Source: Escherichia phage UGKSEcP2
Reading direction: 5' to 3' (one strand)
Sequence record: OV876900
Length of the DNA: 64,000 bases
Shown here: one piece after another, positions 29,921 to 38,803 of the stretch
Layout: each line of letters begins with the position of its first letter
Numbering within the stretch: the stretch's first letter is position 1
Translations under genes and position numbers: made by a program
The notes under the pieces: generated by a model
What the model was told of the DNA's origin: nothing
Databases searched by the model: none
The model's input: the letters and a program-made list of their open reading frames with translations, nothing else

Positions 29921-29973
29921 CCTCATGTTATGTCAGTAAGATTATTATAACACAGCACGAGGGACTTGTAAAC
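29921..29973 (-). repeat. 53-bp early promoter/leader cassette, copy 1 (copy 2 at 45437..45489, 52 of 53 identical)
   Basis: cctcatgttatgtcagtaagattattataacacagcacgagggacttgtaaac compared with the copy upstream of alc, one mismatch. Confidence 0.8.
29944..29973 (-). promoter_or_regulatory. T4-type early promoter (GTTTAC-N18-TATAAT with TG extension)
   Basis: Minus-strand GTTTACAagtccctcgtgctgtgtTATAAT upstream of 96-aa ORF. Confidence 0.6.
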
Positions 29974-32030
29974 TACATCTTGAACTTTTTAGACATTCCG
30001 TTGATGTTAACCAAAGAAGCCAAGATTTGAGAAACTTCGTTTTCCTCTTCTTTTGATTCTTCTACAAGGAATTGATTAAACCCAGCCATTGGACGAACTT
30101 CACCAGTTTCCATTAGATGATCGCCATCATATACCGATTCTTCTAATTGTTCAGAAGGAGGAACGATTGTGCCTTCGATTAGATACTTGTTATAAGCAGT
30201 TTCTTTCATCATGTACGTGCTTACTTTATTAATCTTCAGCAAAATTCCACGCGGTAGAATAACTTCAGCTTCTGATGGAAATCCTGATAAATGACCTGGA
30301 ACGATAACTTTGATTCGCTCAGCCCCTTTAATTACCATACCTACGCTAGTTTCAGCATCTTCATTCGCATAAGCAGAATGACTGCCCATATGCATTAAAT
30401 CTTCAGCATCAACAGAACCTTCTCCTTCACCAGAAAATACTGCGCCGGAATCATCTAGAGCCATATAGTTTTTACCATGCTCACCGAAGATATTTGGTTT
30501 AAGCGATGTTGATACGAAGTTCTTGAAATAGAACATTTTATTTTCAATATTATGGCGTAAAGTTTTAAAAGTAACTTCTTGACCACGATAAAGCGTAGTT
30601 CCCGGAGGAAGAACTGATCCTTTGGCGAATGCAGAATCCATTGTCTCGATGTGTTTAATAGCTCGTTCCATGTATTCTTCACGGGTAGAATCCGGTTTAC
30701 CTAAAAGGAACGAGTTCATTTCAACATATGAATCTGCACAATAATCTTCAATTACATCAGACTCAGCCTGAGTTAATCCTTTTGGAGTTACTTCGGTGCT
30801 TGCGTATTCATATGCCTGAGCAGCAGATTCATTAATCAATTTATAAATGCTATTCATGACAAATTGAATAATAGCTACTTTTTCGTCTGGCGTGGCTTTA
30901 GAACCTTTAACTAAATCATTGATAATTTTCTTAATAACATCAAAGCTATTAGAAATATTAATGTCAGCGAGATCGCTCAAAATTTTATCGGTTTTATAAT
31001 CAAAGAATTCTTTATTCTTTAAATATTCTTGAGAACCTTGATATGTTATATCGCTCTGCAGTCTGATAGACGGATCACGTAAACGTGCATGGGCCAATGC
31101 AATATGATTTCGGAAGCTTTCTAGTTCATAATCGTTAGATTTAAAACGAGAAGCACTTCTCATACCACCGATAGCTCCTTTGCTGAAGTTTGAACCAATC
31201 TGAATAACGCCAGAGTTCATTGGTCCTTCTGCTTTATATACTGGAACTTTAGATTCAAACTCTTGATATTTCTTAGCAGCGAAGCTATCGCCCTGGAGTG
31301 AAGCATCGACAGTAGAATATTGAGCTTGTGCTGCTAATCGACGACTAATTTTAGTTTTCTGAATAACAGCTTGATCCGTGCGCTTATCATTTTCTAAAGC
31401 AATAGAAGCAGCAACAGCAACAGCTTTAGGAACAGCATTACCTGTTTTAACATCTACATAAACATCACCAACCTTTGATTCAACTTTTGTGAATAACTCA
31501 GTTGAAATAGGAGGTACACCTGGAATGTCTTCTAAATTGGCATTTTTACGGTAAACCATAATATATGCATACTTTTTATCATAATCCCAGATTTCCTTTA
31601 AAAGAACATATCGACCTGCTCCTTTAGTACGTACTAAACGGTCAGCAATAACTTGCATCTGACGAGCAGCGCCATTTGTTTTACTTTTTAGTACGCGGAA
31701 TAGGCATGCGTCAATTTTATACTGTTTCATTGTTTGAAGAGCAGTATCAAAAACCGCATTAATGACACCAATTGGATTTCCACCCAAGTTTTTAAGTTTA
31801 ACTAATGATAGTTTCTCATTAACACCTATCATTACGATATGCATCATTTTATCGCCTGGCTTAACGTTTTTATTTGTATCACCGCCAGAGGTGTATGTAC
31901 AAAATCTAAATCCAGGAAGCACGCTTTCTTCACCGGCTTGAATAGCAAAAATTTGAGGTATTTTATGCTTAGGATTTAAGTTAACAACCGGCGCCGAAGC
32001 GCCGTCAAATAATTCTGTAATAAGTTCCAT
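29973..32030 (-). CDS. alt: Alt-family ADP-ribosyltransferase, paralog A (685 aa)
   Basis: N-terminus MELITELFD; C-terminal R-S-EXE motifs (YRGQ, FVSTSL, EAEVILPRG); T4 Alt is about 682 aa. Confidence 0.85.
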   Translation of the reverse strand: MELITELFDGASAPVVNLNPKHKIPQIFAIQAGEESVLPGFRFCTYTSGGDTNKNVKPGDKMMHIVMIGVNEKLSLVKLKNLGGNPIGVINAVFDTALQTMKQYKIDACLFRVLKSKTNGAARQMQVIADRLVRTKGAGRYVLLKEIWDYDKKYAYIMVYRKNANLEDIPGVPPISTELFTKVESKVGDVYVDVKTGNAVPKAVAVAASIALENDKRTDQAVIQKTKISRRLAAQAQYSTVDASLQGDSFAAKKYQEFESKVPVYKAEGPMNSGVIQIGSNFSKGAIGGMRSASRFKSNDYELESFRNHIALAHARLRDPSIRLQSDITYQGSQEYLKNKEFFDYKTDKILSDLADINISNSFDVIKKIINDLVKGSKATPDEKVAIIQFVMNSIYKLINESAAQAYEYASTEVTPKGLTQAESDVIEDYCADSYVEMNSFLLGKPDSTREEYMERAIKHIETMDSAFAKGSVLPPGTTLYRGQEVTFKTLRHNIENKMFYFKNFVSTSLKPNIFGEHGKNYMALDDSGAVFSGEGEGSVDAEDLMHMGSHSAYANEDAETSVGMVIKGAERIKVIVPGHLSGFPSEAEVILPRGILLKINKVSTYMMKETAYNKYLIEGTIVPPSEQLEESVYDGDHLMETGEVRPMAGFNQFLVEESKEEENEVSQILASLVNINGMSKKFKM

Positions 32031-32033
32031 GAT

Positions 32034-34130
32034 TTATCCTTGAACGAACTTGTAAGGCATGTTTGCAATATCTATGCAAGATGCAATAATTCCAAGAGAT
32101 GATTCTACTTTTTGTTTAACATTTGATGAAACAAATGATGCAAAGTCAACTCTGTCTTCTATTTCAATATCATCTGTCATTGCAACTACTTCACCAGTTT
32201 CCATTAGACGGTCACCGTCATAAATTACCGATTCGGTGAGTTCTTCCGTAGTCATAACTTCAGCTTGAATGAGTTTTGTATTATTAGATGTTGTTCCGTC
32301 ATTATTAGAAGCATCAGTTATTTTATTAACTTTGACCATCAATCCGCGTGGTAGAATAACTTCAGCTTCTGTTGCTATTCCGAGACTTCCTGGATATACA
32401 ACATTAACTTTATGAGCTCCATCAATTGCCCATCCTATTTGAACTTTAACGTATTCAGGATTTTCTTTATACGCTCTTATTTCATTTGGATTAATAGTTA
32501 TTCCTTCTTCATTTTTATCAACTGTTAATTCATTACGAGCTTCTGGTTCTAAAAGACCAATACCAGCATGCGTAATTCCAAAACGTCCAAAAATGATAGG
32601 AGTTAAAGAAGTAGATACAAAATTTCTGAAATAGAACACTTTATTTTTAACTAGTGCTTCGTATATAGGAGCAGTCATGCTTTGAGCACGATAAACTGTA
32701 ATGCCTTCTGGTATACGGTCACCATTTTCAAAGGCTGAATCTAAATTATTTATCGCAGATTCAATTTCTTTTTCACTCATTACCTCATATCGTTCTGGAT
32801 TGTAGCGACCTAAAAGAAGATTATTGATGTCAGTATATCCTGAACCACAATACTCTCTAATGCCGCGCTTTTGTGATGGAGTATATTTAGAACCATCACG
32901 AGCAATAGTAATATCAATCATTGGACCTGCACCAATTCCAGAAAAACTATAAATCATTCTTTTGAGGAATTTAGTTTTTGCTGCATTCCAGGAATTTTTA
33001 GTTATTTCTTCCCAGACTTCATCTGTCTGTCCTTTACGAGTTTTATTATGTTTATCAAGCCAGTTATCTTTATATTCTTCAAATAATTGATTAACAACTG
33101 TTGCGTATTTCTCTAAACATTTTATTGAAGTAGTTGGTTCATTTTTAATCGCATTAAGAATTACATCTTTAATTTTTTCAGAAACTTCATTAACCTCACT
33201 TTTTGAAAAGAATTTATAGTCATAATGAAGTTCATCTGCAGTTCCTTCAGCAATAATTTTTGCTGCCTTAGTTTTAGAAGCTAATGAATTAATTCCAAGC
33301 TTCATTTCTTCTGCTTCGGGAATTAAAGGAGCTGTAGCAGGTTTATTGAAATTAGCTGCGGTAGATTCATACTTCTGGAATAATTCACTTTCAAATCTAG
33401 AAGATTCCAATGATTGACTTTGTGCAATTGCTCTACGGGAAATTTTAACTTTAACGATTACAGCTTGGTCAGAACGTTTATCATTTTCTTGTGCAATAGA
33501 TGCTGCAATTGCCTCATTTTTAGTTACTTGAGCTCCAGTATCTTTATTGATATAAACATCACCGACTTTCGATTCAACTTTAGTAAAGAGCTCGGTACTA
33601 ATTTCTGGAACTCCTGGAATGTCTTCTAATGATACATTTTTGCGATGTATAAGAATATATGCGTACTTTTTATCGTAATCCCAGAGTTCCTTAAGAAGGA
33701 CGTATCTGCCACCTGAACGACTGCGGATAAGTCTATCAGCAATAAGTTGAATTTGTCGAGCTTGACCAGCAGTTTTAGACTTAAGAATACGGAGCATACA
33801 GGCATCAATTTTATACTGACGCATCGTTTGCATTGCAACTGTAAAAACTGAATTGATATAATTAATTGGGCTTGGACCGAGACCTTTTAATTTAGCAATT
33901 GAACCTTTAGCAGTTAATGTAAAAGGAACAATATGCATCATTTTATCGCCCATCTTTAAATCGCGATTAGTATCACCTCCAGATGTATAGGTACATAAAC
34001 GAAAGCCTGGTTGTTCAATTGCGTCATCAACATGAACTGAAAAAATTTGCGGTATTTTCTTCTTTGGATTTAAGTTTGTAATCGGAAGAGTAGTATCTTC
34101 GTCAAATAATTCTGTAATGAGTTCCATCAT
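32034..34130 (-). CDS. Alt-family ADP-ribosyltransferase, paralog B (698 aa)
   Basis: N-terminal 230 aa about 70 percent identical to paralog A; C-terminal YRAQ, FVSTSL, EAEVILPRG motifs; own TATAAATA late promoter. Confidence 0.85.
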   Translation of the reverse strand: MMELITELFDEDTTLPITNLNPKKKIPQIFSVHVDDAIEQPGFRLCTYTSGGDTNRDLKMGDKMMHIVPFTLTAKGSIAKLKGLGPSPINYINSVFTVAMQTMRQYKIDACMLRILKSKTAGQARQIQLIADRLIRSRSGGRYVLLKELWDYDKKYAYILIHRKNVSLEDIPGVPEISTELFTKVESKVGDVYINKDTGAQVTKNEAIAASIAQENDKRSDQAVIVKVKISRRAIAQSQSLESSRFESELFQKYESTAANFNKPATAPLIPEAEEMKLGINSLASKTKAAKIIAEGTADELHYDYKFFSKSEVNEVSEKIKDVILNAIKNEPTTSIKCLEKYATVVNQLFEEYKDNWLDKHNKTRKGQTDEVWEEITKNSWNAAKTKFLKRMIYSFSGIGAGPMIDITIARDGSKYTPSQKRGIREYCGSGYTDINNLLLGRYNPERYEVMSEKEIESAINNLDSAFENGDRIPEGITVYRAQSMTAPIYEALVKNKVFYFRNFVSTSLTPIIFGRFGITHAGIGLLEPEARNELTVDKNEEGITINPNEIRAYKENPEYVKVQIGWAIDGAHKVNVVYPGSLGIATEAEVILPRGLMVKVNKITDASNNDGTTSNNTKLIQAEVMTTEELTESVIYDGDRLMETGEVVAMTDDIEIEDRVDFASFVSSNVKQKVESSLGIIASCIDIANMPYKFVQG

Positions 34131-34179: not shown

Positions 34180-34368
34180 TTAATAATCTATTGGTAAGAG
34201 AGTACGATATATTTCAAACTTTGGACCTTTTTCATAGGCATCAAATGTTTCTGTGAATTTATTATAAGCATATGCATCTATAAATTCAATCATAATTTGT
34301 GATACAGAAGTAGAAACATCTCCACCTTCTTTTTGAGCCACGACAATTGTTTCTAAGTAAGCTTTCAT
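34180..34368 (-). CDS. hypothetical protein, 62 aa
   Basis: ATG overlaps ligase stop (ATGA); stop lies inside a UUCG hairpin. Confidence 0.5.
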   Translation of the reverse strand: MKAYLETIVVAQKEGGDVSTSVSQIMIEFIDAYAYNKFTETFDAYEKGPKFEIYRTLLPIDY

Positions 34369-35825
34369 AGACCAGTTACCTCATGAAAATCACCAAATAC
34401 ATCCTCGAATGTATTAGCTTTAGTTTTATCTTCACGTAAACGAATCGCAATCGGAAGAAATAATTTAACGTAATCAGTGCGGCCATCAGATTTTAACCAA
34501 CCGTTGCATTCGCACTCTAGAATTTTTCCAATATAATAATTTTGGTTTTCCATAATGCGAGTACGGTCAAGTTCATGCGATTTTACACCGGCTTTATCTT
34601 TTAAGCCTGAACCAGCATTTACTTTAATTTTTCCACACTCTGATTCAAGAATAAATCCACCTGCTTTAGTAGGGTCTTTACGGTGAGGATAAATTCCTAC
34701 AATTTTTAAATCAACATCAATTACTTCTTTAAATTTATAAAGATTTTTTGAACGAGCATTTTCCCACAATCCATCGGTATTTTTGAGAATAATACCTTCA
34801 AGACCTTGGTCAATATACTTTTTATAAATTACCTTAGCTTCATCTAGGTTATTTACTACCTGGTTTTCAATTAAAATTACTTTATCATATCCTGATGTCA
34901 TTTGTTCTAGTTTAGAAAAACGTACATCATATTTTAAACGAAACGCCGGAAGACCGTATATTTCTACCAACGGGACATAATCCCAGACCTGAAACTTCAT
35001 GCATTGAGCTTCTTTTTCTGAAATAGTTCCCTTTAAAGATTTATTGGCGATTCCATTAGAAGCAGTACGCGATTCAGCTACTTCGGAAAACTCTTTAGCT
35101 TTACTGATTTCAGGAGCATCAAAAAGAAAATCTAGGCCTTCTGGCTCCTTTTCAACCTGCTCATGGTATACCAATTCGCCATCAATTAACACGCCTTCTG
35201 GATGAATCTGGCGAGCTTCAGCAGTCATTTTGATTAACTCTTCCTTAAGAAGATCTAATCCTAGATATTCATTACCAGCTCGTGATAAAAGACGAACATC
35301 ATCTAATTCATCACCTCGGACTTCAGCAAAACACCGAGCTCCATCTGCTTTTAACTGTGCAAAAGCTGGAAATTTGATATTCTTACTAATGCCTTTTTCA
35401 TCATAAGAACTTGCCAGCATTTGAGGCTGTTCAGGAATTAAACCTGGCCAAACTTTATTTGCGATAGATACTGAAGCACCGCATTCAAGATCTCGCATCA
35501 TAACTCGACGCAAAACTTCAACATCATCCTTTTTACCATCAGTGATATATCCAGTTAATTCCTCAATTGCAGCATTTCCAGTCAATTTCCGAGTAGCTAA
35601 CGTGAATTCAATGAAGTCAAGCATATCGGTAATAGTCAGCATTCCAAAACTCTGGGTAGCAATACCAGGTTTAGGCCATTTCTTGATATAATACTGTAAC
35701 CCACGAGAATAAGTCAGACGATATACTCGTTTAAGCAATTCATTATCTTTATTCTTTTCAAGAATTGCTTGCTTCTGCTTAGTTGATCCAATAGATGCTA
35801 TTTCATTCAGAATTTTAAGAATCAT
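34365..35825 (-). CDS. 30: ATP-dependent DNA ligase gp30
   Basis: 486 aa; N-terminus MILKILNEIASIGSTKQKQ and adenylation lysine motif AQLKADGARC match recalled T4 DNA ligase. Confidence 0.95.
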   Translation of the reverse strand: MILKILNEIASIGSTKQKQAILEKNKDNELLKRVYRLTYSRGLQYYIKKWPKPGIATQSFGMLTITDMLDFIEFTLATRKLTGNAAIEELTGYITDGKKDDVEVLRRVMMRDLECGASVSIANKVWPGLIPEQPQMLASSYDEKGISKNIKFPAFAQLKADGARCFAEVRGDELDDVRLLSRAGNEYLGLDLLKEELIKMTAEARQIHPEGVLIDGELVYHEQVEKEPEGLDFLFDAPEISKAKEFSEVAESRTASNGIANKSLKGTISEKEAQCMKFQVWDYVPLVEIYGLPAFRLKYDVRFSKLEQMTSGYDKVILIENQVVNNLDEAKVIYKKYIDQGLEGIILKNTDGLWENARSKNLYKFKEVIDVDLKIVGIYPHRKDPTKAGGFILESECGKIKVNAGSGLKDKAGVKSHELDRTRIMENQNYYIGKILECECNGWLKSDGRTDYVKLFLPIAIRLREDKTKANTFEDVFGDFHEVTGL

Positions 35826-36091
35826 TGCTCATCCTTCAAGGTTTGGTTTACAGCTCTATTATAAATCAATTCATCATTAAGCTCAGGCAAAGACCTATGA
35901 TATGTAGTTCTAACTTTATTTCCTTGCATCCAGTGCTTAACGTAAATGAAACCTTGCTCTACACATTTTTTAAAAATTCGTTCGTCTTTTTGAGCTCGGA
36001 ATTCTGGATTACATCTAAAAAATTGATTTACGTGACCGTAATCACGTGTAGTATTACCTTCATTTTCATAAATAGTGTGAACGACAAACAT
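35822..36091 (-). CDS. hypothetical protein (position of T4 30.1)
   Basis: 89 aa; ATGA overlap with ligase start; the antisense plus-strand ORF 35825..36094 has low-complexity F/I/L/S composition and is rejected. Confidence 0.6.
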   Translation of the reverse strand: MFVVHTIYENEGNTTRDYGHVNQFFRCNPEFRAQKDERIFKKCVEQGFIYVKHWMQGNKVRTTYHRSLPELNDELIYNRAVNQTLKDEQ

Positions 36092-36930
36092 TAGAATGCT
36101 CCTTGGAAAATATTATCACCGCTAGTAGGTCTATTATACAAATACTCTATGCCACCAGGTTTAATATAGTTCCATGTCTGAAATGGATGTGTCTGATATG
36201 GATGATATAGATGATTATAAGGATTAAATCCAGGCGTTCTCCAGGTAGTGTTCCAAGTAAAAGAATCGTTTTTAACCATCTTCTCAATTAAATCTTTTAT
36301 AGCTTTTTCACTATCAAAACTTTCTTTATTTTCCTTCGGCGAAAAAAGCTTATTTTCTACATCATTCCATGTATAAACTCGCTGGGCAGTTTTTGGAATA
36401 TTGTCACGCTCTCCTCGAGCCATCCAATAAACTGGAACATTTAATATTTCACTCGCATGATCGCAGTGGTGAGCGAGATCGTCAATATAACAAATTACGT
36501 TATATTTCTCTTTTGCCTTTTTGAACAGCTCTTCTTTTGAAGAATCATGACCACACATCATTACTTCTGAGAAGGCACCAGGAAAAAGAGCATTCAAATT
36601 AAATTGACGATTCAGCAGAGCGTCAATAGAATCACCCAATGCTGTAACAGCTACAAAATTATAATCTTCTTTTAATTTATTAATTACACACAGGGCATCT
36701 TTATATGGAGACAAGTAACGAATAAAATCTGATCGATTATATTTTTCAATTAGCTTGACACCGAGTTCTTCATCACAATTAAAGAGTTTACCTGGAGAAA
36801 TAAATTTCTCATCTTGGATCATTTTTAAAATATGTTCTAACGGAAGATTATATTTCTGAGCAAAATAAGGAAGACCTGATTGCCAGCTTAAACATACTCC
36901 ATCAATATCAGTTAAAATAGTAGGCTTCAT
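36091..36930 (-). CDS. HAD-superfamily hydrolase-like protein (position of T4 30.2)
   Basis: 279 aa; N-terminal DIDGV motif typical of HAD motif I. Confidence 0.65.
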   Translation of the reverse strand: MKPTILTDIDGVCLSWQSGLPYFAQKYNLPLEHILKMIQDEKFISPGKLFNCDEELGVKLIEKYNRSDFIRYLSPYKDALCVINKLKEDYNFVAVTALGDSIDALLNRQFNLNALFPGAFSEVMMCGHDSSKEELFKKAKEKYNVICYIDDLAHHCDHASEILNVPVYWMARGERDNIPKTAQRVYTWNDVENKLFSPKENKESFDSEKAIKDLIEKMVKNDSFTWNTTWRTPGFNPYNHLYHPYQTHPFQTWNYIKPGGIEYLYNRPTSGDNIFQGAF

Positions 36931-37385
36931 AGAGAGTCTCTTAATAGGTTTAACACATCAATAAATTCAGCTTCGGTTAGTATTGTATCATCTTTTGTTA
37001 GACCACTAGCCATGCTGTGCTTCAAAACTTTTCCTTTCGAGGCTTGTAATGCATCACGAAAGCCCCTGTTTTGGAACGCTGCTTCAAAATATGCATTTGT
37101 GTATAATTCTTTCCACGCTGGAGAGTATCTTGAAAACGGAACTCCAAGCCAGAAGAGGGTCCCACGGTCCTGAGCTCTAGCATAAGCTCGTCCAGCTTGT
37201 TGGGCGGCAAGCCCGGATAACCCAAATATACGATGTTGCTGTTCAACATTTTTCACCTTGCATCCTTGGAGGAATCCTTCGAGACCTCCAAATTGGATAC
37301 CATCCATAACAAAAGGCCATTGGGCGAAATTACTTAATGCACATGATGGCCATCTAAAATTGCTTCTAATCTCTAACTCAGACAT
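36927..37385 (-). CDS. NADAR (YbiA-like, DUF1768) family protein (position of T4 30.3)
   Basis: Track start is TTG at 37391; ATG at 37385; motif LSNFAQWP...DG...EGFLQGCK resembles YbiA FSNFAAWP...EHYFQAQK from memory. Confidence 0.6.
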   Translation of the reverse strand: MSELEIRSNFRWPSCALSNFAQWPFVMDGIQFGGLEGFLQGCKVKNVEQQHRIFGLSGLAAQQAGRAYARAQDRGTLFWLGVPFSRYSPAWKELYTNAYFEAAFQNRGFRDALQASKGKVLKHSMASGLTKDDTILTEAEFIDVLNLLRDSL

Positions 37386-37593
37386 TTTCAATACTTATAA
37401 TTTCAACATCAGCCCAATGACCGTAACTTGGTAAACGGTCTTCAATAGATAATCCGCCATCATATTTAAGCATTTTAATTGTCATAATATATGGCTCTAA
37501 ATGGTCTTCAGTGAGCGGAGAGACATCAGTCACACGATAAGTAACTTCGACCATTTCCGTGCCCAGTAATTTCTTGATTAATTTCTTAAACAT
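37378..37593 (-). CDS. hypothetical protein, 71 aa
   Basis: ATG ORF overlapping stop of upstream gene. Confidence 0.5.
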   Translation of the reverse strand: MFKKLIKKLLGTEMVEVTYRVTDVSPLTEDHLEPYIMTIKMLKYDGGLSIEDRLPSYGHWADVEIISIENV

Positions 37594-37597
37594 TTTA

Positions 37598-37885
37598 TTA
37601 GAACCTCATCTGAAAACCGTGCGATTTAACACTACCGCCGCCAATATCAGAAATATTAATTTCACGCGCAATTGAAGGGTCAATGTCAATTTCACGATTG
37701 AGTTTAGTGATAGCTAAAGTATCGCGGCCATTTACAGTACGGAACTCTAAAGGGCAGACTACATTAACATAGTTTTTAATCGATTCACTGGTAGGTTGCA
37801 AATGAGCAGGAAGGTCTTTAGGCGCCTTAGAGAAAACCACTTCACAGAAATTTTTGCGGGTGTCAAAATAAGTAGTCATAAACAT
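37598..37885 (-). CDS. hypothetical protein, 95 aa
   Basis: ATG ORF with GAGGA upstream. Confidence 0.55.
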   Translation of the reverse strand: MFMTTYFDTRKNFCEVVFSKAPKDLPAHLQPTSESIKNYVNVVCPLEFRTVNGRDTLAITKLNREIDIDPSIAREINISDIGGGSVKSHGFQMRF

Positions 37886-38360: not shown

Positions 38361-38693
38361 TTATTTTACTACTTTCCAGTGCTGCATGTCAAGTTTACCA
38401 ACTTTTTTCATCTTCTCAATTAAGCGTTCGGCGCGTTGGCGAGCTGTAACATAATACCATTCACCCAATTCATTTTGTTCAATTTTTCCAACGATTACTG
38501 TATTCAATTCATAAATCCAACCAGTAAAGAAATTATGAACTTGAATTGTAAAGGTGAAATCTGTTCCCATACCTTCTGTTGTTTCTACTTCAATAATATC
38601 ACCTTCAACTGCCATTAAGAACCACATAGTTTCATCATATTTACCGTTGAAGCATTTAGTTTTAACTGCAGCGTTCAGATTAATTGTTTTCAT
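38361..38693 (-). CDS. hypothetical protein, 110 aa
   Basis: ATG ORF with GGAG upstream, downstream of early promoter. Confidence 0.55.
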   Translation of the reverse strand: MKTINLNAAVKTKCFNGKYDETMWFLMAVEGDIIEVETTEGMGTDFTFTIQVHNFFTGWIYELNTVIVGKIEQNELGEWYYVTARQRAERLIEKMKKVGKLDMQHWKVVK

Positions 38694-38770: not shown

Positions 38771-38798
38771 AAATAAAAAAGGACTCCCGAAGGAGTCC
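38771..38798 (-). terminator. terminator downstream of small basic protein gene
   Basis: ggactcc-cgaa-ggagtcc hairpin followed by U6 on minus strand. Confidence 0.65.
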
Positions 38799-38803
38799 TC
38801 AAC

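Follow-up and report, generated by a model that had tools for sequence, protein, structure and literature searches.

AdfN of Escherichia phage UGKSEcP2 and its neighbour gp30.2, a predicted nucleotidase-like HAD phosphatase, are very probably products of two independent early genes

Resistance of T-even phages to DarTG1 has been mapped to gene 30.3, renamed adfN (Johannesman, Carlson & LeRoux 2024, PMC11257639). The T4 protein, AdfN, is both necessary and sufficient against DarTG1, loses its function upon the substitutions E36A and K43A and, when purified, strips ADP-ribose from DarT1-modified DNA in vitro (PMC11257639). Hydrolysis of guanine-ADP-ribose in vitro has also been reported for T4 gp30.3 (Cihlova et al. 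2024, PMC11125620), and in the HIDEN-SEQ transposon screen of T4 adfN is conditionally essential on DarTG1 hosts, where insertions in 30.3 are lost (log2 fold change -7.25, adjusted p 0; supplementary table, 10.1101/2025.11.20.689424; here and below, the sheet with the DarTG1 values was taken to be Data S6, Control versus DarTG1, judging from the file layout and the text). Here, we analyze the corresponding locus in a 64,000-nucleotide stretch of Escherichia phage UGKSEcP2 (sequence record OV876900; hereafter, the window), namely, gene 30.3 and the adjacent gene 30.2. Very probably, the locus consists of two independent early genes, one for the anti-DarTG1 glycohydrolase AdfN, the other for a HAD phosphomonoesterase, gp30.2, that stands outside the anti-DarT mechanism.

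An earlier sequence-only reading of this DNA had noted a NADAR-like protein, proposed as a counter-defence candidate, and a HAD-like neighbor close to the genes of DNA ligase and Alt. Both open reading frames are present on the minus strand where it had placed them (Table 1), and so are the strings it had quoted: LSNFAQWP (residues 17–24), DG (28–29), and EGFLQGCK (36–43) in the 152-residue protein, and DIDGV (8–12) in the 279-residue one. Since each product is 97% identical to its T4 counterpart and tblastn finds homologues of gp30.3 in ~1,500 and of gp30.2 in ~1,450 phage records, chance reading frames can be excluded, and both are genuine genes. The open reading frame listing gives an in-frame TTG as the start of 30.3 (37391, 154 residues); the ATG two codons in (37385, 152 residues) matches the T4 annotation exactly. 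Region 35800–37600 shows 99.3% identity to Escherichia phage Killian and 95–99% identity to hundreds of Tequatrovirus genomes, and the order of genes on the minus strand (cd, 31.2, 31.1, 31, rIII, 30.9 to 30.6, 30.4, 30.3, 30.2, 30.1, 30, encoding the ligase, alt.1, and alt) is that of the T4 map; judged by its sequence, the window belongs to a T4-like (Tequatrovirus) phage.

The product of gene 30.3 aligns with T4 AdfN over its whole length of 152 residues as an orthologue, 147 of which are identical (97%), and it occupies the same position in the order 30.4-30.3-30.2-30.1-30-alt. The two proteins differ by five conservative substitutions (window residue, position, T4 residue: H51R, A67S, F104I, R107K, M125I), none of them in an invariant column of the alignment of 39 homologues (alignment A2) from which conservation in the family was read. 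Invariant positions of this alignment include S18, N19, F20, E36, G37, F38, Q40, and H123, and K43 is at least 90% conserved; E36, K43, and H123, the residues concerned by the conservation check that the sequence-only reading had called for, are all present in the window protein. A histidine in the last strand is the hallmark of phage NADARs, other NADARs having Glu or Asp there (PMC11125620, PMC11257639), and in the RB69 allele a frameshift that takes off the last 15 residues yields an inactive protein (PMC11257639). Because E36, K43, H123, and the whole C-terminal helix are kept, and the five differences miss the invariant columns, the window allele, at 97% identity to T4 AdfN, is predicted to be probably active. 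Orthology, residue conservation, and fold were established here, activity and phenotype are taken from the literature, and we infer that they carry over to the window allele.

The assignment of gp30.3 to the NADAR superfamily, made in the sequence-only reading from a resemblance of motifs, is borne out by profiles and structure. The family profile built from the 39 homologues reaches Escherichia coli YbiA (2b3w) with E 0.003, setting LSNF onto FSNF and EGFLQ..K onto EHYFQ..K, with E36 and K43 on the Glu and Lys of YbiA, and five of the 39 members match the NADAR profile PF08719 (best E 1.5e-7). The AlphaFold2 model (predicted local distance difference test, pLDDT, 93.2; predicted template modeling score, pTM, 0.88) has the NADAR fold: in a Foldseek comparison with the PDB, the sole matches below E=1, and the top three, are 2b3w (YbiA), 8bau (NADAR of P. 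nicotianae with ADP-ribose), and 8bat (DarG1-type NADAR of G. lovleyi), all at probability 1.00 and with query TM-scores of 0.57–0.68. Thus, gp30.3 shares with the DarG1-type and BC4488-type NADAR antitoxins (8bat) and with YbiA (2b3w) the fold and the LSNF and E-x-x-x-Q-x-x-K motifs and, according to the literature, the chemistry of guanine-ADP-ribose hydrolysis (PMC11257639, PMC11125620). It differs from them by a sequence identity of 15–18% and by the replacement of the acidic residue of the last strand with His, and from the DarG1-type antitoxins by being encoded by an orphan gene with no adjacent DarT, the T4 protein not serving as an antitoxin in uninfected cells (PMC11125620).

Taking all this into account, the following course of events may be proposed. 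When the phage infects a host that carries DarTG1, the toxin, DarT1, would ADP-ribosylate guanine in the phage DNA and block its replication; AdfN, a single-domain NADAR protein, would cut the linkage between ADP-ribose and guanine by means of E36, K43, and the phage-specific H123; ADP-ribose would be released and the base restored, so that replication could go on. The suggestion that a phage NADAR counters such toxins was therefore right, and it is not new, because the 97% identical T4 gp30.3 has already been published as AdfN and its function demonstrated (PMC11257639; PMC11125620; HIDEN-SEQ).

Two observations concern the adfN reading frame itself. C-terminally shortened adfN alleles were suspected, as many Tequatrovirus tblastn matches span residues 1–144 only; the product translated from one locus with such coverage (L014) is of full length and ends in the same C-terminus, and the short coverage there is an alignment artefact. 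The out-of-frame internal open reading frame 30.3' (75 residues, annotated in T4) is open in the window as well (37022..37249, minus strand). Since it retains 88% identity to the T4 copy, compared with 97% for the overlapping AdfN protein, the sequences suggest that it is the adfN frame, and not 30.3', that is under selection.

For gp30.2, the call of a HAD protein is likewise supported, both by motifs and by fold. The four HAD motifs correspond to D8-I-D10-G-V12 (I), T96 (II), K132 (III), and D150-D151 (IV). D8, D10, G11, and K132 do not vary among 37 family members, where conservation of T96, D150, and D151 is 90% or higher; among 48 more distant relatives, the invariant residues include D8, D10, R108, and K132, with T96 and D151 again at 90% or more. 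A search with the gp30.2 profile over the whole library yielded 1,331 clusters at E<=1e-3, and most of the listed matches are single-domain proteins of 190–220 residues. The AlphaFold2 model has pLDDT above 90 for residues 1–190 and below 50 for residues 245–279, and comprises a Rossmann-like HAD core fold with a helical insertion of ~70 residues (helices 16–86) between the strands of motifs I and II, that is, a C1 cap. Given the motifs and the modeled fold, we predict with high confidence that gp30.2 is a catalytically competent HAD phosphatase. It would be a Mg2+-dependent phosphomonoesterase with D8 as the nucleophile and D10 as the general acid/base, T96 and K132 binding phosphate and D150/D151 the metal.

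Within the HAD superfamily, several lines of evidence point to the NT5C (PF06941) nucleotidases. PF06941 is the Pfam family most often matched by relatives of gp30.2 (6 of the 37 close and 18 of the 48 remote ones, best E 4.2e-10); the structures with the lowest root-mean-square deviation and the highest target TM-scores in the Foldseek comparison are cdN, mdN, and 3bwv; and the family profile aligns, weakly, with mouse cdN 2jao (E 0.07), setting DGV-x3-W-Q-S-G-L onto DGV-x3-F-E-S-G-L. In this alignment, the invariant W16 of gp30.2 falls on the Phe of cdN in DGVLADFESGL, eight positions past the nucleophile Asp; in cdN, this Phe has a role in base stacking. With the human and mouse cdN/mdN and the Staphylococcus epidermidis protein 3bwv, gp30.2 has in common the HAD core, the C1 cap, DxDGV, and aromatic-x-S-G-L; it differs from them by an identity of 14–21%, by the lack of a PF06941 match of its own, and by a C-terminal extension of ~80 residues, of which the final 35 to 60 are predicted to be disordered. 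From the motifs and fold seen here, we infer, at moderate confidence, an NT5C-like enzyme acting on a nucleotide; its substrate and its biological role are predictions. The substrate is most probably a small molecule, as predicted from the helical C1 cap, and, NT5C being the nearest family, a (deoxy)nucleoside monophosphate.

Several points weigh against this reading of the two genes. In the Pfam search, gp30.3 itself matches PF08010 (Phage_30_3; E 1.7e-68; 229 bits, the cut-off being 36) and has no direct match to PF08719 at E<=1, and the NCBIfam and PADLOC searches gave no match for it; the expected NADAR (DUF1768) profile similarity thus holds for the family profile and for some family members, not for the protein taken singly. 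For the same reason, the lack of a significant NADAR match, which the sequence-only reading would have accepted as disproof, would have led to a wrong rejection here. For gp30.2, Pfam and NCBIfam contain no family matching at E<=1, so that no curated HAD profile was matched, and PADLOC gave no match for it either; its sole strong family match is PHROG 420 (function not assigned), PF00702, PF13419, or PF06941 being matched by its relatives only. Single-sequence PDB searches with either protein returned nothing useful. The HAD subfamily is weakly defined by fold alone, as many HAD families score about alike. When DarT1 is expressed in uninfected E. coli, T4 AdfN does not relieve its toxicity (PMC11125620), so that the substrate needs of AdfN in vivo are only partly understood; the window allele itself is predicted to be active from data on its T4 orthologue. 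Finally, insertions in 30.2 show no phenotype on DarTG1 hosts, nor do they in LB, where all 72 of the 72 TA sites are hit and the gene is thus non-essential, or in M9, where they are neutral (log2 fold change -0.10; HIDEN-SEQ, 10.1101/2025.11.20.689424). Because of this lack of a phenotype under the conditions examined, the nucleotidase assignment is given here as a prediction. A literature search found no paper mentioning "gp30.2" and no biochemical or genetic work on it, and no HAD enzyme is involved in the NARP3 paper.

The strongest competitor of the small-molecule nucleotidase, although an unlikely one, is a nucleic-acid end-healing 3'-phosphatase similar to the HAD domain of T4 polynucleotide kinase (Pnk), which would ready nicks for the ligase encoded nearby; indeed, 30.2 lies beside the ligase gene across T4-like phages. 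A C1 cap such as the one modeled in gp30.2 is a typical mark of HAD phosphatases with small-molecule substrates and tends to keep out the ends of macromolecules. Moreover, NT5C is nearer to gp30.2 than Pnk both by sequence and by structure, and T4-like phages already encode PseT.

Somewhat less probable still is a replication-fork-tethered version of the nucleotide phosphatase. The disordered tail of gp30.2 contains IEYLY (residues 261–265, within GGIEYLY), resembling LDFLF of T4 ligase and polymerase; the ligase loop carries a crystallographically defined motif for binding of the gp45 clamp, common to the gp43 C-terminus (PMC6212786). The pattern [LIVM][DE][FYW][LIVM][FYW] occurs three times in the six-frame translation of the window (stop-free stretches of at least 60 codons), GLDFLF of the ligase being one of these occurrences, and by a rough estimate ~1.5 matches are expected by chance in the window proteome. 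A broader motif, G-I-E-Y-[LWY]-x-x-Q/R-P-T, is found in ~20 of 59 long-tailed representatives of the gp30.2 family. The conservation pattern argues against clamp binding: the strict LDFLF-like pattern is retained in one of 100 gp30.2 cluster representatives, the hydrophobic residue at the third position being usually absent; some close Tequatroviruses have a disrupted motif; and, across genera, there is no co-variation between this motif and the clamp motif of the ligase. Hence, there is a slim chance, as far as sequence goes, that gp30.2 binds gp45 or another replisome protein via its tail; if it did, it would be a new clamp client and might clean or adjust nucleotides locally at the fork or act against a nucleotide-based defence.

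Being translationally overlapping with AdfN, gp30.2 was the obvious candidate for the missing factor of AdfN, and thus it was tested in this role. According to this explanation, which we consider very improbable, counter-defence is the work of a two-part module made up of AdfN and gp30.2, the HAD enzyme processing, for example, the released ADP-ribose or a phosphorylated intermediate. The stop codon of 30.3 overlaps the start of 30.2 (ATGA at 36927–36930); the two genes are probably co-transcribed, since the promoter and terminator scan found no terminator-like site on the minus strand from 38779 to the ligase gene; and Tevenvirinae as well as an Acinetobacter phage of Twarogvirinae retain the succession of NADAR and HAD genes. 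In addition to its failure in uninfected E. coli, AdfN barely helps T5 or Bas25, which its authors would explain either by a preference for hydroxymethylcytosine-containing DNA or by the need for another phage factor (PMC11257639, PMC11125620). Against the module, AdfN acts alone in vitro (PMC11257639, PMC11125620), and insertions in 30.2 are neutral on DarTG1 hosts (71 sites, log2 fold change -0.12, p 0.61), where those in 30.3 are lost (10.1101/2025.11.20.689424); the value for 30.1 on the same sheet is -0.01 (10.1101/2025.11.20.689424).

Synteny agrees with these data. We considered 80 IMG/VR loci with a gp30.3 homologue and sought HAD and ligase genes within 8 kb: a gp30.2-type HAD gene is present in 22 loci, neither a HAD nor a ligase gene in 57 (some on short contigs), and all 20 loci holding both have the order NADAR, HAD, (30.1), ligase. 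The Acinetobacter phage (Twarogvirinae) keeps 30.3-30.2-ligase-Alt; phage ECD7 has 30.3 immediately before the ligase gene and no HAD gene; in JD18 and Aeromonas phage CC2, the NADAR gene lies elsewhere than the ligase gene; and in a distant metagenomic phage (locus L005) the HAD gene stands beside the ligase gene with no NADAR gene. Therefore, the HAD gene goes with the gene of the ligase rather than with that of NADAR. As insertions in 30.2 are neutral where those in 30.3 are lost, and the HAD gene is tied to the ligase gene, gp30.2 as an AdfN cofactor is rejected for T4 and DarTG1, and the link among the HAD protein, the Alt enzymes, and NADAR that the sequence-only reading had implied finds no support in either synteny or HIDEN-SEQ.

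Least credible of all is a housekeeping role for gp30.3 in place of counter-defence, be it that of a YbiA-like metabolic N-glycosidase (riboflavin-intermediate damage control) or some other: YbiA is its best PDB match by structure and sequence, and some homologues carry the JGI label "YbiA (DUF1768 family)", but both genetics and biochemistry directly show a function of the T4 orthologue against DarTG1, and this protein is otherwise dispensable; moreover, in phage NADARs His replaces the YbiA-type Glu (PMC11125620).

Table 1. Genes and sequence features of the adfN–30.2 locus (window coordinates)
Feature	Position	Strand	Description
Gene 30.3 (adfN)	36927..37385	-	152 residues; predicted NADAR-superfamily DNA ADP-ribosylglycohydrolase, phage gp30.3 branch; 97% identity to T4 gp30.3
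Putative catalytic Glu and Lys, codons E36 to K43 (EGFLQGCK)	37257..37280	-	Among 39 homologues: E36 invariant; K43, conservation of at least 90%
H123 codon, last-strand His marking phage gp30.3-type NADARs	37017..37019	-	Invariant in alignment A2; strand 120–123 of the model
C-terminal helix of AdfN, residues 138–152	36928..36972	-	Intact; helix 138–151 of the model; stretch identical to the T4 C-terminus
Gene 30.2	36091..36930	-	279 residues; predicted NT5C-like C1-capped HAD phosphatase domain (~1–200), short helical segment, disordered tail (~221–279)
HAD motif I, DIDGV	36895..36909	-	Predicted D8 nucleophile and D10 general acid/base; D8, D10, G11 invariant in 37 family members
IEYLY, residues 261–265 of the gp30.2 tail (GGIEYLY)	36136..36150	-	Resembles gp45-clamp-binding LDFLF of T4 ligase and polymerase; tail peptide KPGGIEYLYNRPT
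Gene 30.1	35822..36091	-	DUF3045, 89 residues; between 30.2 and the ligase gene; PF11243, E 1.6e-63
Gene 30	34365..35825	-	ATP-dependent DNA ligase; PF01068
Internal clamp-binding motif of the ligase, GLDFLF (EPEGLDFLFD loop)	about 35120..35137	-	Two genes downstream of 30.2; GLDFLF begins at about 35135; peptide KKEPEGLDFLFDA
Gene 30.4 homologue	37378..37593	-	71 residues; overlaps the start of adfN by 8 nucleotides at its 3' end; 53% identity to T4 gp30.4; PHROG 2042
Two tandem Alt-like ADP-ribosyltransferase paralogues	29973..32030 and 32034..34130	-	685 and 698 residues; 41% identity to each other

The surroundings of the two genes largely agree with the sequence-only reading, which had placed the pair directly upstream of DNA ligase and near Alt enzymes, in the plural. 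The first statement is slightly off, because gene 30.1 sits between 30.2 and gene 30; the second is correct, as there are two tandem Alt paralogues. T4 has one Alt, compared with two in the window, and related IMG/VR genomes have one to three copies (e.g., L017). According to a recent preprint (HIDEN-SEQ, 10.1101/2025.11.20.689424), the T4 Alt acts against Mokosh type I, and this activity is specific to the allele.

On the other side of adfN, no 30.5 homologue is found between the 30.4 homologue and 30.6 of the window. Insertions in T4 30.4 are mildly depleted on DarTG1 hosts (log2 fold change -1.79, adjusted p 0.014; 10.1101/2025.11.20.689424); probably, these insertions are polar on adfN, whose start 30.4 overlaps, the alternative being a real contribution of 30.4. 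A sigma-70-like promoter close to the consensus (11 of 12 positions matching; 38363..38392, minus strand) overlaps the 3' end of a 110-residue open reading frame (38361..38693), ~70 nucleotides upstream of 30.7, and a strong terminator-like hairpin (38779..38800, minus strand) lies upstream of that frame. With no terminator-like site on the minus strand between this hairpin and the ligase gene, the genes from 30.7 to 30 may well make up a single transcription unit. Overall, the promoter and terminator scan gave counts near the shuffle expectation and no regulatory feature specific to 30.2 or 30.3.

In two more distant phages, other genes were noted near the NADAR gene. In Aeromonas phage CC2 (L008, 4001..8447), it lies in a block with genes for ribose-phosphate pyrophosphokinase and nicotinamide phosphoribosyltransferase, both belonging to NAD+ salvage. 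In Acinetobacter phage Konradin (L006, 903..1427), a gene for a Nudix ADP-ribose pyrophosphatase (nudE) is situated ~2.5 kb upstream of the 30.3-30.2-ligase-Alt block, and so several ADP-ribose-related genes cluster in this phage.

The synteny and the transposon data close off the idea that gp30.2 is the other factor explaining why AdfN works only during T-even infection. For this window, the outcome is one of annotation: the phage carries an intact and, by its sequence conservation, probably active adfN allele and thus should resist DarTG1. The protein gp30.2 belongs, as an uncharacterised member, to a known superfamily of enzymes and has no link to the anti-DarT mechanism; near-universal in T4-like phages (~1,450 phage records), predicted to be catalytic, and syntenic with the ligase gene, it is a target for enzymology and defence-panel screens.

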